From a virus (taxonomy: Duplodnaviria > Heunggongvirae > Uroviricota > Caudoviricetes): DNA of 42,302 nucleotides. The stretch lies in the IMG/VR virus record IMGVR_UViG_2713896905_000008; one strand, given 5' to 3'. Below are positions 35,935 through 39,339 of the stretch, piece by piece; the stretch's first letter is position 1; each line of letters starts with the position of its first letter. Below the pieces are notes generated by a model. The model made no database searches, was not told the DNA's origin, and saw only the letters and a program-made list of their open reading frames with translations. Both the position numbers and the translations under genes were made by a program.

Positions 35935-36069
35935 AGCTTTCTCCTTTTTAGGTAGTTAAGTTGTTACGAGTTGCAAGAATACAACATTAACAACTTTTAT
36001 CACAACTTTTAGGTGTTGGAAAGCTAAAACATAAAGTTGTAACCTCATCAAAAAAGAGAGGGATATGTT
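35935..36069. promoter_or_regulatory. OR-like divergent promoter/operator region between cro and cI
   Basis: Multiple copies of the half-site ACAACTT / AAGTTGT (AAGTTGTtacg..., ACAACAttaACAACTTttatcACAACTTtt..., ataAAGTTGTaac) in the 135-bp intergenic region. Confidence 0.6.
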
Positions 36070-36756
36070 GTGAAAACACTGGCAGAACGATTAAAGATAG
36101 GTAGAGAGAAAGCTGGCATGAGCCAAGCTCAACTAGCTGAAAAAATTGGACTTTCACAACAATCTGTAGCCAAAATAGAGAATGGCGAAACTCTACAACC
36201 GCGCAAAATTAAAGAAATTGCAAAAGTTTTAGGTGTATCACAAAAGTGGTTACAACTTGGTATTGAAGACAACGCATCCATACCTGATCTTGTTGTAAAA
36301 GAAGCAGAAAGCACCGCATTAGACCCCGATATTTTCGTAAACATTCCTGTTTTAGATGTCGAGTTATCGGCAGGTAACGGATGTCTGGCTGAAATAGTTG
36401 AATCAGCTATTGACTGGTTTCCGTTAAGAAGAGCAGATTTGAGAAAATCTGGCGTATGTGCATCTAATGCCAAGATCGTAAAAATATGGGGGAACAGTTT
36501 ATTACCGGTTCTCAATAATGGAGATCTTGTTGCCGTTGATATTTCTCAAACCATTCCTATTCGTGATGGCGATCTTTATGCCGTACGAGATGGTGTATTG
36601 CTAAGGGTTAAAATACTTATCAACTTACCTGACGGTGGCTTGATTCTTAGAAGCTTCAACAAAGATGAGTACCCAGATGAAATACTCACCTTTGAAGATA
36701 GACGAGCCAGAATTCATGTTATAGGTAGGGTATTCTGGTCATCGCGAACTTGGTAA
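36070..36756 (+). CDS. CI-like prophage repressor (HTH plus LexA/S24 peptidase-like domain)
   Basis: 228 aa; N-terminal HTH MSQAQLAEKIGLSQQSVAKIENG; C-terminal S24-like region (IWGNSLLPVLNNGDLVAVD). Probable GTG start. Confidence 0.8.
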   Translation: MKTLAERLKIGREKAGMSQAQLAEKIGLSQQSVAKIENGETLQPRKIKEIAKVLGVSQKWLQLGIEDNASIPDLVVKEAESTALDPDIFVNIPVLDVELSAGNGCLAEIVESAIDWFPLRRADLRKSGVCASNAKIVKIWGNSLLPVLNNGDLVAVDISQTIPIRDGDLYAVRDGVLLRVKILINLPDGGLILRSFNKDEYPDEILTFEDRRARIHVIGRVFWSSRTW

Positions 36757-37659
36757 TGCATCGAAAAGCATTTCTTCAGAAATAATTTTAAGTTTTGCAC
36801 CATTATCATCCCTATAAGATATAGCTTTTTCGATCTTCCTTCCGTGACTTGAGAATTTCCAATCACGGGAGGAAAGCGTCCCAATTACTAAAAAATCCAA
36901 CTTTTGAGTAATTCCACTACTGATGTTCCCACCAGCATTTTTAATCAAATTTTCAACTACGGCTCTCTTTCCTGCAACAAAAGTGCCTGTAAGACAATAG
37001 GTTTTACCCTCTAACTCTATCGAAGCCCCTACATCAATAGGCAGCCTGGTCGCCAAACCATCCACCACCCCACTTTCCAAGTCACATCCTGTGAAGTCTA
37101 CTAATGCCTTATGTAGAGTTAAACTCTCATCTTCAGTAATAACCCCATCTTTAAGAATTTCCTTTACAAGTGCATAAAGTTTTTTTCCTGGGTAGTTGTT
37201 CTTCAAAGCTCCATTTTGCTCAAGCCACCAATTAAGATATCTTATTTCTTCTTGAGTTAAGTTCCGATCAGCAATTAATCCTTTACATAGTCCATTAAGT
37301 AAATGGACATCTACATCCTTGGAGTAAAAATCAATTTCAGGGATATCAAGAATTTCCCTCTGTATTTGGAGAAGGCTATTTTTAAGGTCATCACGTTCTT
37401 CTGATGTGATTATTCCATCCGCAAGAATATCCGACACCCGTGCTGATAGACTTTTTATAACTCCATTATTGATAATCTGCTTTGCTTCAAGTAACCATGT
37501 ATCTAAGTAAAGAACCTCCTCTTCACGGACAACTCCATCTGCAATGATTCCATCAATGATGCTAATCAAGTTAGCAAATAACTTGTCCCGGTTCTGTGTG
37601 TAATTAAAAGCGTAAAGCGCGTCTTCCATACAACCTCCTTTTTTTGATAATCCTTGCAC
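36739..37659 (-). CDS. BRCT-domain protein with four N-terminal ~35-aa repeats, unknown function (cargo at rexAB-equivalent position)
   Basis: C-terminus LEGKTYCLTGTFVAGKRAVVENLIKNAGGNISSGITQKLDFLVIG...KLKIISEEMLFDAL parallels the LigA-type BRCT fold. N-terminal repeats each contain ..ADG.IT.EE...L.. A+T-rich; convergent with cI. Confidence 0.55.
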   Translation of the reverse strand: MQGLSKKGGCMEDALYAFNYTQNRDKLFANLISIIDGIIADGVVREEEVLYLDTWLLEAKQIINNGVIKSLSARVSDILADGIITSEERDDLKNSLLQIQREILDIPEIDFYSKDVDVHLLNGLCKGLIADRNLTQEEIRYLNWWLEQNGALKNNYPGKKLYALVKEILKDGVITEDESLTLHKALVDFTGCDLESGVVDGLATRLPIDVGASIELEGKTYCLTGTFVAGKRAVVENLIKNAGGNISSGITQKLDFLVIGTLSSRDWKFSSHGRKIEKAISYRDDNGAKLKIISEEMLFDALPSSR

Positions 37660-37692
37660 TCCTTGACTACACGTTCAAACCACATAAAGTTG

Positions 37693-37721
37693 TTGACAAT
37701 GTTCAAAATCACAACTAAATT
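37693..37721 (+). promoter_or_regulatory. pL-like promoter candidate with flanking operator half-sites
   Basis: TTGACA (37693-37698), 17-bp spacer, TAAATT (37716-37721). Flanked by AAAGTTGT, ACAACT and ACAACTT motifs shared with the OR-like region. Confidence 0.5.
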
Positions 37722-37880
37722 ACAACTTAAAGATGTTAAAAACAACAAACAGGCAGGACGCCCACGAAGTAGCCGCCTGGGGCATATGAAGTCCAGGATG
37801 ATTCGTTAGCAACAAAAAAGCGCCCTACAGGACGCTTAGCTCTTTAACAATCTGGTCCCCATCAACAAGTAACTGATAAC

Positions 37881-38102
37881 TTGAGGAGGTGTGAAATGCA
37901 CAAAACAGAACCAAAAATCGTCGCGCCCGGATACACAAATGAGGAAATTTACGAGTGGATGGCAAAGAAGCTGGCAGCTATAAACCAGCTTCGTGAAGTG
38001 CTGTCTTATCGACAGAAAACAATAGACTCCTTAAAAAAACTGGATCAGGAAATCACGGTTTTATCACAGGATGTTACTTTAGATATTGTGCAGACAAATT
38101 AG
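37881..38102 (+). CDS. small hypothetical early protein
   Basis: About 68 aa from MHKTEPK; first ORF downstream of the pL-like promoter. Not Arg-rich, so not N-like. Confidence 0.35.
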   Translation: MRRCEMHKTEPKIVAPGYTNEEIYEWMAKKLAAINQLREVLSYRQKTIDSLKKLDQEITVLSQDVTLDIVQTN

Positions 38103-38508
38103 GATCCCATTCATTTTCGTCAAAATCATCAAAGTGATGAATTTGTGATCTCCAGTCTCGATAATCTAAAAATTTCTGGGCGGTTACGCTTATTTTATCA
38201 AGTGTGAGTTCATCCTGAATTGAAAGAAGAAGTTCATCAAATTTCATCTCATTAATCTGTTTTGGCATCCAGTGATGCTTCATCAGAATAAGGTGAACCA
38301 GAGCCTTTTTCCCATTCAACTGATTATAGGGAGTGCCGAATTTCTTCCGGTGCTCATGTAAGACAAGGTCCAGAAGAGTAAGTAATGTTGCCCTTGATTC
38401 AACTTTGCTTATTTCGACTGATGACACTACCCCACTGATTTCAATGCCCCGATACTTTCCAACATTTTCACAGTGGGATTTGTACAGCGTATAGATATTA
38501 CCGGACAT
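38074..38508 (-). CDS. hypothetical protein with Rx6H motif (possible HEPN-like)
   Basis: 144 aa, A+T-rich, opposite strand to the surrounding early genes; C-terminal RDWRSQIHH. Confidence 0.4.
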   Translation of the reverse strand: MSGNIYTLYKSHCENVGKYRGIEISGVVSSVEISKVESRATLLTLLDLVLHEHRKKFGTPYNQLNGKKALVHLILMKHHWMPKQINEMKFDELLLSIQDELTLDKISVTAQKFLDYRDWRSQIHHFDDFDENEWDPNLSAQYLK

Positions 38509-38639
38509 TTCTTTTCCTTTTGCGTTGTTGGGGATAACCAGATTAACCGAATCCTTGTTGTTGGGGAATAACCAGGTCCACCTCGCCTGATGTGGCTAAA
38601 AGCAGGCACATAACAGCTAAGTATTTTCAACCAGAGAGA

Positions 38640-38930
38640 ATCCTTAGCGTTGTGGTGAATGCGGCTCAGCGCACGCGGGTAAAGGTTGAGGCTGACAGTC
38701 GACCTTCTGTGGATACCCACCCGCCTGGTGTGCAACCTTCGCTAGGCACCGGGAGGCGCCCGGCACCACAACTTTATGCTGTGTGTAGTCTTGGCGGTAC
38801 CAGCTTGTACCCTTGCTTCCGGCTGGTACCGTCCTTTTTACAAAACAGAGAAGAGCATCACCGGACGACGGGCTCATAACCCAATCCATCCGGGCGGCTG
38901 CCACCGCAGGTGTTCTTCTCTGTTTTGTGG
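38640..38930 (+). ncRNA. candidate structured non-coding RNA / RNA regulatory element (strand uncertain)
   Basis: GC-rich region with no protein-like frame. Nested complementarity GTTGTGGTG (38650)/CACCACAAC (38765) and GCACGCGGGT/ACCCGC..GTGTGC; hairpin GGTACCAGC-16nt-GCTGGTACC followed by GTCCTTTTTAC; stem ACAGAGAAGA/TCTTCTCTGT around a 58-nt insert. Confidence 0.35.
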
Positions 38931-38976
38931 AGAAACCAACCGGCCTTGCAGGGTCGATATGATGAGGAGCAGCAAA

Positions 38977-39339
38977 ATGGCTAGCGAACGCAGTACTGAT
39001 GTGCAGGCATTTATCGGGGAGCTGGACGGCGGCGTATTTGAAACCAAAATCGGTGCAGTTCTCAGTGAAGTCGCTTCCGGTGTGATGAACACGAAAACCA
39101 AAGGTAAGGTCTCACTCAACCTGGAAATCGAACCATTTGATGAGAACCGTGTGAAAATCAAACACAAACTCTCATATGTTCGCCCGACTAACCGCGGGAA
39201 AATTTCCGAAGAAGACACCACCGAAACGCCGATGTATGTCAATCGCGGTGGTCGCCTGACTATTCTGCAGGAAGACCAGGGACAATTACTGACTCTTGCC
39301 GGTGAACCTGACGGAAAACTCCGCGCAGCAGGTTATTAA
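38977..39339 (+). CDS. YfdP-like early protein
   Basis: 120 aa from MASERSTDV with GAGGAG SD 7 nt upstream; precedes a YfdQ-like gene. Confidence 0.5.
   Translation: MASERSTDVQAFIGELDGGVFETKIGAVLSEVASGVMNTKTKGKVSLNLEIEPFDENRVKIKHKLSYVRPTNRGKISEEDTTETPMYVNRGGRLTILQEDQGQLLTLAGEPDGKLRAAGY

Follow-up and report, generated by a model that had tools for sequence, protein, structure and literature searches.

This analysis concerns a window of 42,302 nucleotides (nt) of viral DNA (Caudoviricetes, IMG/VR record IMGVR_UViG_2713896905_000008) and, within it, the G+C-rich region upstream of a yfdP-like gene. Judged from its sequence and that of its relatives, this region constitutes a genuine, conserved locus for a non-coding RNA, situated in the early-left operon of a temperate phage of the SfIV/SfV/e14 type. 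It is a divergent member of STnc100, a known family of prophage small RNAs (sRNAs), is arranged like the DicF locus and is embedded in the early-left operon. The locus comprises three modules: a 5' hairpin with a pseudoknotted domain (module A, 38616-38772), a linker with an intrinsic terminator (module B, 38773-38839) and a long branched hairpin (module C, 38838-38930). The overall best explanation, which we consider moderately probable, is a DicF-type early-operon sRNA whose terminator also gates the genes from yfdP to xis-int. The parts of the locus are:

38616-38648 (+), 5' hairpin P0, GCUAAG...CUUAGC, fold z-score -4.8; located directly before helix P1 in type-2 elements (see below)
38649-38772 (+), STnc100-type pseudoknotted domain, type 2; recognised by the match to RF02076, a 48-sequence alignment, pair-count controls and a permutation test
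38649-38657 / 38764-38772 (+), helix P1, the closing stem, from the consensus of alignment A2
38661-38665 / 38671-38676 (+), helix P2 with bulged A38673, from the same consensus
38682-38688 (+), strand S, AAGGUUG, which pairs with the P4 loop
38723-38730 / 38740-38747 (+), helix P4 with the loop CAACCUU (38733-38739), which forms the pseudoknot with strand S
38749-38753 / 38759-38763 (+), helix P5, again from the A2 consensus
38773-38792 (+), single-stranded linker with a conserved core and the putative seed UUUAUGCUGUGUGUAGUCUU (UGCUGUGUGUAGUCUU)
38793-38839 (+), intrinsic terminator with a stem GGCGGUACCAGC(U)/(G)GCUGGUACCGUC of 12-13 base pairs (bp), a 15-nt loop and U5; -26.3 kcal/mol, z -3.8
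38838-38930 (+), module C, a three-way-junction hairpin with a 22-bp basal stem and two apical hairpins; -47.8 kcal/mol, z -7.3
38931-38976 (+), rest of the 5' untranslated region (UTR) with the Shine-Dalgarno sequence GAGGAG before the ATG at 38977, by sequence reading
38977-39339 (+), yfdP-like gene of 120 amino acids (aa), labelled YfdP in phage records, the first gene gated by the terminator

Membership in the STnc100 family emerged from the covariance-model scan that the original prediction had proposed as a check. At the gathering threshold, Rfam yields no match in the whole 42-kb window. In a permissive scan, 38619-38842 (+) aligns with positions 1-206 of the 206 positions of STnc100 (RF02076). 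The score is 43.2 bits compared to a gathering cut-off of 47 bits; E is 5.4e-8 when 701 nt are searched and 3.3e-6 for the 42-kb window, in which no other match reaches E <1. STnc100 is a multicopy prophage sRNA with 11 copies in EDL933, one of which (STnc100_4) is northern-positive (PMC5331693). The Hfq-binding sRNA EcOnc27/sRNA103 of enterohaemorrhagic Escherichia coli overlaps with the STnc100 copy that lies downstream of stx2B (PMC12711010, which cites the Hfq binding). STnc100 is related to PasD (bioRxiv 10.64898/2026.05.13.724894). The canonical members are transcribed, Hfq-bound prophage sRNAs (PMC5331693, PMC12711010, bioRxiv 10.64898/2026.05.13.724894).

The window copy shares with STnc100/PasD the helices P1, P2 with its bulged A and P4, the P5 hairpin CCGGG-AGGCA-CCCGG, the GAAU junction, the order domain, linker, terminator and the prophage location. 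In contrast to STnc100, every P2 pair is swapped (GCGGC/GCACGC for CCCCC/GGAGGGG), a helix enclosing P3 and the 5' hairpin P0 are added, the linker sequence is unrelated and a promoter of its own is absent. Furthermore, the window copy resides in the early-left operon and not in the late region, where STnc100 copies have Q or stx on one side and the lysis genes on the other. Two readings offered by the original prediction, a phage sRNA and a structured leader, fit the end-to-end sub-threshold match, the layout of domain, linker and terminator and the location inside the early-left unit. HnrS (EcOnc10-12), a different sRNA of 66 nt, was ruled out as a counterpart.

Further copies were found by scanning viral contigs for the invariant 3' hairpin motif (P5), which gave at least 120 loci. 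From the loci listed, 129 usable copies were obtained that form 46 clusters at 88% identity. Most of these clusters, among the matches listed, have an intrinsic terminator after the domain, separated from it by a linker of ~18-33 nt. Alignment A2 comprises 48 diverged phage copies with P1, P2 (including the bulged A), P4 and P5 as consensus helices. In these helices, 95.3% of the cells are paired vs. 81% in shuffles, and double changes occupy 150 cells vs. 43. The covariation score amounts to 0.384 compared to 0.123 in shuffles (0/500 as high) and is at most 0.13 when the partners are slid. The comparative alignment, likewise proposed beforehand, has thus revealed compensatory base changes. 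P5 is invariant by construction because it served as the search motif; an exception is the Qin copy with the compensatory version CCUGG/CCAGG. The P0 stem is swapped for other complementary arms in phage P1 (AAGAGCAUU/AAUGCUCUU), phiES15 (UGAAGCGCAUU/AAUGCGCUUCA) and ST64B (AAGAG/CUCUU).

In nearly every copy, the strand that follows P2 is complementary to the P4 loop, and this is realised by many different sequences. Examples are AAGGUUG/CAACCUU in the window, UGGUUAU/AUAACCA in phage P1, AAGGCUGG/UCAGCCUU in phiES15 as well as CCAGUC/GACUGG and AGACUGACAAA/UUUGUCAGUCU. In a permutation test, the matched complementary run has a mean length of 7.48 nt vs. 5.63 nt for mismatched strands, and 0 of 10000 permutations reach the observed value. 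Since strand S and the P4 loop covary, the domain of module A is read as a pseudoknotted multi-helix fold of ~125 nt. The consensus line of STnc100 in Rfam is drawn without this pseudoknot.

The copies belong to two types that occupy two genomic slots. Type 1 has P2 = CCCCC/GGAGGGG, and the majority of its copies exceed the Rfam cut-off, with scores of 52-132 bits. A strong promoter (TTGACx, 17-18 nt, TAAATT-like) ends at a fixed distance of 6 nt before P1 in at least 13 of 35 clusters. The type-1 slot is bounded by a Q antiterminator gene, from one of three families (PF03589, PF06530, DUF1133), and by holin/lysozyme genes; in 933W and H-19B, the copies are found after stxB and ahead of an esterase gene. 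Promoter and position between Q and lysis genes led us to read the type-1 copies as late-operon leader RNAs with a terminator. The loci with the promoter 6 nt before P1 include L015, L018, L046, L052, L091 and L125. In L019 (2265-3380), four type-1 copies are arranged in tandem beside tRNA genes. Type 2, to which the window copy belongs, has P2 = GCGGC/GCACGC and covarying P0 arms. At the gathering threshold, type-2 copies (ST64B, phiES15, P1, Qin and others) are absent from the Rfam matches. The type-2 slot shares the strand of cI and follows this gene at a distance of 0.5-0.8 kb, ahead of the early-left genes (SfIV, ST64B, phiES15, L013, L104, e14). In addition, type 2 is present in the ban operon of phage P1 just before tciA and in Qin between dicF and dicB.

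All three perfect stems named in the original prediction were confirmed, and two of them proved to be longer. The 9-bp pair GTTGTGGTG (38649-38657)/CACCACAAC (38764-38772) coincides with P1. The terminator-like hairpin GGTACCAGC (38796-38804)/GCTGGTACC (38822-38830), followed by TTTTT (38835-38839), was verified by direct reading and has a stem GGCGGTACCAGC(T)/(G)GCTGGTACCGTC of 12-13 bp. The 10-bp stem ACAGAGAAGA (38846-38855)/TCTTCTCTGT (38914-38923) around a 58-nt insert extends to 22 bp (38838-38859/38909-38930). The contrast in base composition also holds, with a G+C content of 0.555-0.585 in the region vs. 0.35-0.415 in the gene to its left. The left boundary, previously assumed at 38640, had to be moved, as the RNA begins at 38616 with the covarying hairpin P0. 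Fold z-scores were computed against dinucleotide shuffles and amount to -5.3 for the + strand and -3.35 for the - strand of the whole 311-nt region. Two features, the G-U pairs and the T tract, place the RNA on the + strand.

The linker core UGCUGUGUG(U/A)AGUCUU is kept in the window, e14, ST64B, phiES15 and L093 despite differing P3, P4 and terminators. Within the 42-kb window, a search for the complement of the linker yielded only the linker site itself. The terminator starts 20 nt after P1. Its stem carries compensatory changes in e14 and is replaced by a different one in ST64B, where the terminator segment measures ~70 nt compared to ~50 nt in the window. Terminator and long hairpin are retained in 81 of 81 yfdP-linked loci examined, and the type-2 P5 motif is absent within 520 nt upstream of the yfdP-like gene in ~47 of these 81. 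One such locus, L134, was read: A different domain with the same closing stem GUUGUGG/CCACAAC precedes the same terminator. This domain has P2, P3, P4 and a GUAUGG/CCAUAC pseudoknot, P5 is absent, and an identical sequence precedes DicF in Qin.

In module C, three compensatory pairs are found among the window, e14, ST64B and L134, and the apical stems covary. It sits in the 5' UTR of the first downstream gene, which is xisE and not yfdP in e14. It is a candidate RNase III or stability element, an analogy drawn from the lambda N leader and its hairpin. The yfdP-like gene is followed by a gene for a DUF2303 protein (yfdQ-like) and one for an HD phosphatase (yfdR-like), in related phages then by xis and int. 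Neither Pfam nor PADLOC searches found a match for the YfdP-like protein.

The arrangement of the locus resembles that of DicF in the prophage Qin of E. coli K-12. Two DicF species are known, one of 190 nt whose 5' end is generated by RNase III and one of 53 nt generated by RNase E. Both originate from the polycistronic dicBp transcript, and a longer transcript into dicB was not detected (bioRxiv 10.1101/2023.04.14.536235). In Qin (L133), a P5-less relative of the fold is located directly before DicF and spans, together with DicF, 190 nt (2251-2440). The window RNA would measure 191 nt from P1 and 224 nt from P0 to the end of the U tract. Because of the shared closing stem, the common layout and the lengths of 191 and 190 nt, modules A and B are read as the SfIV-type counterpart of the 190-nt DicF RNA. 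Both loci use the same slot after a cI-like repressor and a few small genes and before toxic or early genes. In both, a domain closed by GUUGUGG/CCACAAC is followed by a linker and a terminator starting with UUGGCGGUAYCAG; the 5' arm of the window terminator resembles that of the DicF terminator. The Qin RNA arises by processing of a polycistronic transcript, and read-through is blocked by its own terminator; the window locus agrees with it in position and terminator.

There are also differences. The ftsZ-pairing loop and the 3' arm of DicF deviate in the window RNA. The domain ahead of DicF lacks P5, and the true type-2 domain of Qin is found after DicF in the dicB 5' UTR. This STnc100-like domain (L133 2455-2585, 34.4 bits) is located between dicF and dicB and ends ~30 nt before the dicB start codon.

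The element is widespread. Of 5426 complete E. coli genomes, 2779 carry some or all of the 365-nt locus, and 1824 carry at least 80% of it. The e14 element of the K-12 type (L214) matches window positions 38612-38976 at 2500-2830. There, the annotated coding sequence (CDS) 'ymfH' covers the type-2 element with a damaged P5 (CCGGG-GGCA-CCCGA), the terminator and module C and is located directly upstream of xisE-intE. This open reading frame (ORF) is probably spurious.

The transcript that contains the element probably starts at a promoter resembling pL, and a second structured RNA is located just behind it:

37693-37721 (+), pL-like sigma-70 promoter TTGACA-17-TAAATT, the best match of the region (10/12)
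37744-37807 (+), structured pL leader box of ~65 nt, at about +15 to +80 of the pL transcript, supported by covariation

The 12-mer ACATAAAGTTGT occurs at 36029-36040 and at 37682-37693. These operator-like repeats are common to the flank of pL and the cI-cro intergenic region. Due to the pL-like promoter and the operator-like repeats upstream, the element is placed inside the pL unit. The distance to the start of this unit is ~0.9 kb and includes a 73-aa ORF and, in antisense orientation, an A+T-rich moron of 144 aa. The e14 element shows the same pL layout, with pL and the leader box intact at L214 1700-1813.

The leader box consists of a closing stem, a small hairpin and a 5-bp hairpin with the conserved 12-nt loop GGCAUAYGAARN. 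The closing stem is fully exchanged for CCACC/GGUGG in mEp237, and at least five forms of the 5-bp stem occur under the conserved loop. Nine of 16 pairs are compensatory, and 94.8% of the cells are paired vs. 82.3% in shuffles (0/500 as high). The box is found ~100 nt after cI genes of differing specificity in SfIV, SfV, SfII, ST64B, e14, mEp237, Pectobacterium ZF40, Yersinia YeP1-3 and phages of Klebsiella, Citrobacter and Aeromonas. It has no match in Rfam. It is located 0.44-1.1 kb upstream of 19 of 28 type-2 copies vs. 1 of 95 type-1 copies; many type-2 copies are close relatives, which means that these counts are not independent. In ST64B (L006 2548-3363), the non-coding leader between cI and the yfdP-like gene has a length of ~0.7-0.8 kb. 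In this leader, pL with its operators comes first, then the leader box and a GC-rich stretch; the type-2 element follows with a terminator of its own, and module C comes last. The GC-rich stretch carries an additional terminator-like hairpin GGCGG...CCGCC AGCTTTTT.

In the proposed mechanism, transcription from pL would stop near 38839, and subsequent 5' processing would yield a stable RNA of ~191 nt (from P1) or ~224 nt (from P0). This RNA would be the counterpart of the 190-nt DicF species, cut from a polycistronic early transcript. The structured 5' domain would stabilise and mark the RNA. With the help of Hfq, the linker could provide the seed for pairing with mRNAs, perhaps once RNase E has released the 3' part as in the case of DicF. 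At the same time, the terminator would act in cis as a tL-type barrier, and the genes from yfdP-like to xis/int would only be made by read-through polymerase, which was probably modified upstream at the leader box just after pL. In e14, ymfH, xisE, intE and ymfJ form one co-regulated group in the 'YmfT iModulon' table (PMC12132413), which fits read-through on induction. A similar logic is known from the lambda N leader (nutL, RNase III hairpin, tL1): Here too, a promoter-proximal non-coding leader has a terminator which makes downstream genes dependent on antitermination, and a long hairpin is located just upstream of the first gene. The short terminated late-leader transcript from pR' (6S/StxS) doubles as an sRNA, as described for StxS (PMC7547250). 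In contrast to lambda, the N gene and boxB are absent from the window, and the fold is unrelated to lambda 6S or StxS.

If this holds, the early sRNA is produced while xis/int and other early genes stay behind the terminator, which is a testable picture. Furthermore, STnc100/PasD, the DicF locus and the early-left leaders of the SfV/ST64B/e14 type would be joined as one fold family with a covarying pseudoknot, whose type-2 copies, as far as tested, escape Rfam reporting at the gathering threshold. The leader box would be a candidate for the early antitermination mechanism of N-less phages. These family-level points, i.e. the pseudoknot, the type-1 late leaders, the link to the 190-nt DicF RNA, the ymfH annotation and the leader box, may outweigh the single locus.

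Several observations weigh against a DicF-type sRNA. The Rfam score is below the threshold, which is common to all type-2 copies tested. Discrete transcripts and Hfq binding are reported in the literature for type-1 members only, and in the literature on ymfH and on ST64B sRNAs, expression data for the type-2 element were not found. A convincing sigma-70 promoter adjacent to type-2 copies was looked for and not found, and with such a promoter absent, the 5' end must be assumed to come from processing. The U tail of the terminator comprises only five U. The DicF model (RF00039) matches the window at 38780-38834 with 19.4 bits (E 0.13) compared to a cut-off of 48 bits, whereas true DicF scores 76.7 bits. 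The energy of a duplex between linker/terminator and ftsZ (-80 to +60) is no better than with shuffles; the same crude test does not pick out the real DicF either and is thus uninformative. Finally, the GAAU junction, the P2 loop and the P5 hairpin are near-invariant across phages of Escherichia, Salmonella, Klebsiella, Cronobacter and others. This exceeds the needs of a stabilising fold and suggests a specific binding partner.

A further reading is tentative and rather improbable: The pseudoknotted fold, as found in late leaders, in the early-left element and, without P5, in the DicF precursor, might be more than a passive scaffold and serve as a module recognised by a factor from host or phage, e.g. 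RNA polymerase/Nus, RNase III/E or a ligand. In that case, the recognition factor would set in cis the balance between terminated or processed sRNA on the one hand and read-through into toxic early or late genes on the other hand. Recognition module and leader box together would then constitute an RNA-based control layer for N-less lambdoid phages.

A different proposal assigns no role in trans to the window copy and regards the element as a purely structural cassette that protects the 5' end and sets the sites for RNase III/E. Type-1 transcripts start exactly at P1 and consequently have a base-paired 5' end, the fold precedes both sRNA tails and mRNAs, and DicF provides a precedent for RNase III/E processing around a related fold. 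However, the linker sequence is kept across otherwise differing lineages, which argues for a sequence-specific role, and the invariance of loops and P5 goes beyond the requirements of stability. On balance, such a cassette is rather unlikely.

The possibility that module A is a cis-acting processive antitermination RNA of the put or EAR kind which replaces the missing N protein, one of the suggestions made in the original prediction, is less likely still. In this case, the domain would bind the RNA polymerase transcribing it, which would then pass the terminator of the element as well as later ones. The element occurs in the early-left leader of phages without a recognisable N, directly before a terminator, and combines a complex fold with near-invariant unpaired nucleotides. 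In the ST64B leader, polymerase has to pass two terminator-like hairpins. The put RNAs of HK022/HK639, antiterminator RNAs bound to polymerase, are likewise structured RNAs in the early-left leader of N-less lambdoid phages with terminators downstream. Yet, they have no sequence or structural similarity with module A: put comprises ~70 nt with two stem-loops and the conserved UAAACCAU and CAGGAUGA and is located at the transcription start, while module A has ~125 nt, is pseudoknotted and lies ~0.9 kb from pL (other type-2 loci 0.44-1.1 kb from the leader box). An alignment of module A to HK022 putL/putR and the annotated putL-like site of HK639 revealed no relation, and the hexamer GGAUGA is not shared with module A, which was rejected as a put-type RNA. 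Moreover, the type-1 relatives are found between a strong promoter, with Q genes upstream, and holin/lysozyme genes, with a terminator following. According to PMC7547250, the late promoter is constitutive in lysogens. Therefore, an autonomous antiterminator at this slot would switch on lysis and be lethal. In addition, the Qin domain lies after the DicF terminator, and a second copy of module A or of the leader box for the rightward operon is not found in the window.

It is the leader box, a different conserved RNA, that takes the put/nut position. Its position and covariation make it the likely site where RNA polymerase becomes terminator-resistant. It is a better candidate than module A for RNA-based antitermination and a candidate positional analogue of putL/nutL in N-less phages. 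The box itself is not put-like either, as only the hexamer GGAUGA is common to it and put (HK022 putL/putR, HK639 putL-like). A boxA-like sequence, UGCUCUUU, upstream of the P1 helix in phage P1 was considered as a nut-like site and discarded; it is found in some type-2 copies only and doubles as the 3' arm of P0.

Alternatively, the element could be a riboswitch or a factor-dependent attenuator in which the domain is the aptamer for a metabolite or protein and the variable 3' part serves as expression platform, i.e. the terminator in the window and the ribosome-binding site at tciA of phage P1 and dicB of Qin. Conservation is high in the aptamer-like pseudoknotted domain, in contrast to the variable parts downstream, and in P1 and Qin the domain ends 25-35 nt before the start codon with no terminator in between. 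Besides, strand S of type 2 can pair either locally or with the P4 loop, which allows two conformers. For the attenuator suggested in the original prediction, a covarying alternative pairing of the terminator 5' arm with the domain or linker was looked for but not found: In 28 clusters, the matched run for an antiterminator averages 5.93 nt vs. 6.12 nt for mismatched combinations, and the observed length is reached in 4529 of 5000 permutations. The downstream genes (lysis genes, yfdP, kil, tciA, esterase) are unrelated and do not suggest a common ligand, and canonical family members accumulate as Hfq-bound sRNAs. A regulatory switch of this kind is, hence, as improbable as antitermination by module A.

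An antitoxin or regulator RNA for the A+T-rich 144-aa gene (38074-38508, -), the former also suggested in the original prediction, is hardly credible: Adjacency and contrast in base composition are its sole support, the gene is on the opposite strand, is absent in ST64B and is replaced by ymfI in e14 and by an unrelated 95-aa ORF in phiES15, it has no Pfam or PADLOC match, ToxI-type tandem repeats are not present at the locus, and family members are found in many settings that lack a neighbour of this kind.

Equally implausible is a decayed or small coding gene. The original prediction saw no protein-like reading frame; this stands as regards the non-coding nature of the region, not literally, as ORFs of 95, 86 and 49 aa and an N-terminal extension of the yfdP frame cross it. 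Database records place hypothetical proteins over the region, including 'ymfH' in e14, and the annotated frames differ between records. Stem substitutions are compensatory and stem and loop lengths vary between homologues, due to which the overlapping ORFs are judged spurious, and the G-U pairs work only in the + strand RNA. In the light of these comparisons, the interval 38616-38976 is non-coding, and the conserved feature is an RNA structure and not a reading frame.

On the left side, the RNA is flanked by a further conserved element:

38577-38615 (strand not assigned), conserved block CCACCTCGCCTGATGTGGCTAAAAGCAGGCACATAACAG, nearly identical in Cronobacter phiES15 and similar in e14, with differing flanks

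In phiES15 and e14, this block reads as a minus-strand promoter (TTAGCC or TTCACC, 16 nt, TATACT or TATGCT), the -10 part of which is replaced in the window. A convincing + strand sigma-70 promoter was not found in it. Probably, the block represents the 5' flank of the RNA and/or contains the promoter from which the divergent minus-strand moron is transcribed. Two direct copies of GTTGTTGGGGA(A)TAACCAG (38523-38540 and 38556-38574) are situated between this block and the beginning of the 144-aa gene. They are absent from the e14 and phiES15 counterparts and are a possible binding site of a protein at the divergent promoter region.

The slot of the moron-like A+T-rich 144-aa orphan (38074-38508, -) holds unrelated genes in e14 (ymfI) and phiES15. 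The 73-aa protein has no match in Pfam and PADLOC searches either. Further to the left, a second moron-like gene (36739-37659, -), located like the first between cI and the element, encodes 306 aa; its product carries a BRCT domain at the C terminus and weakly matches the PADLOC candidate PDC-S48.

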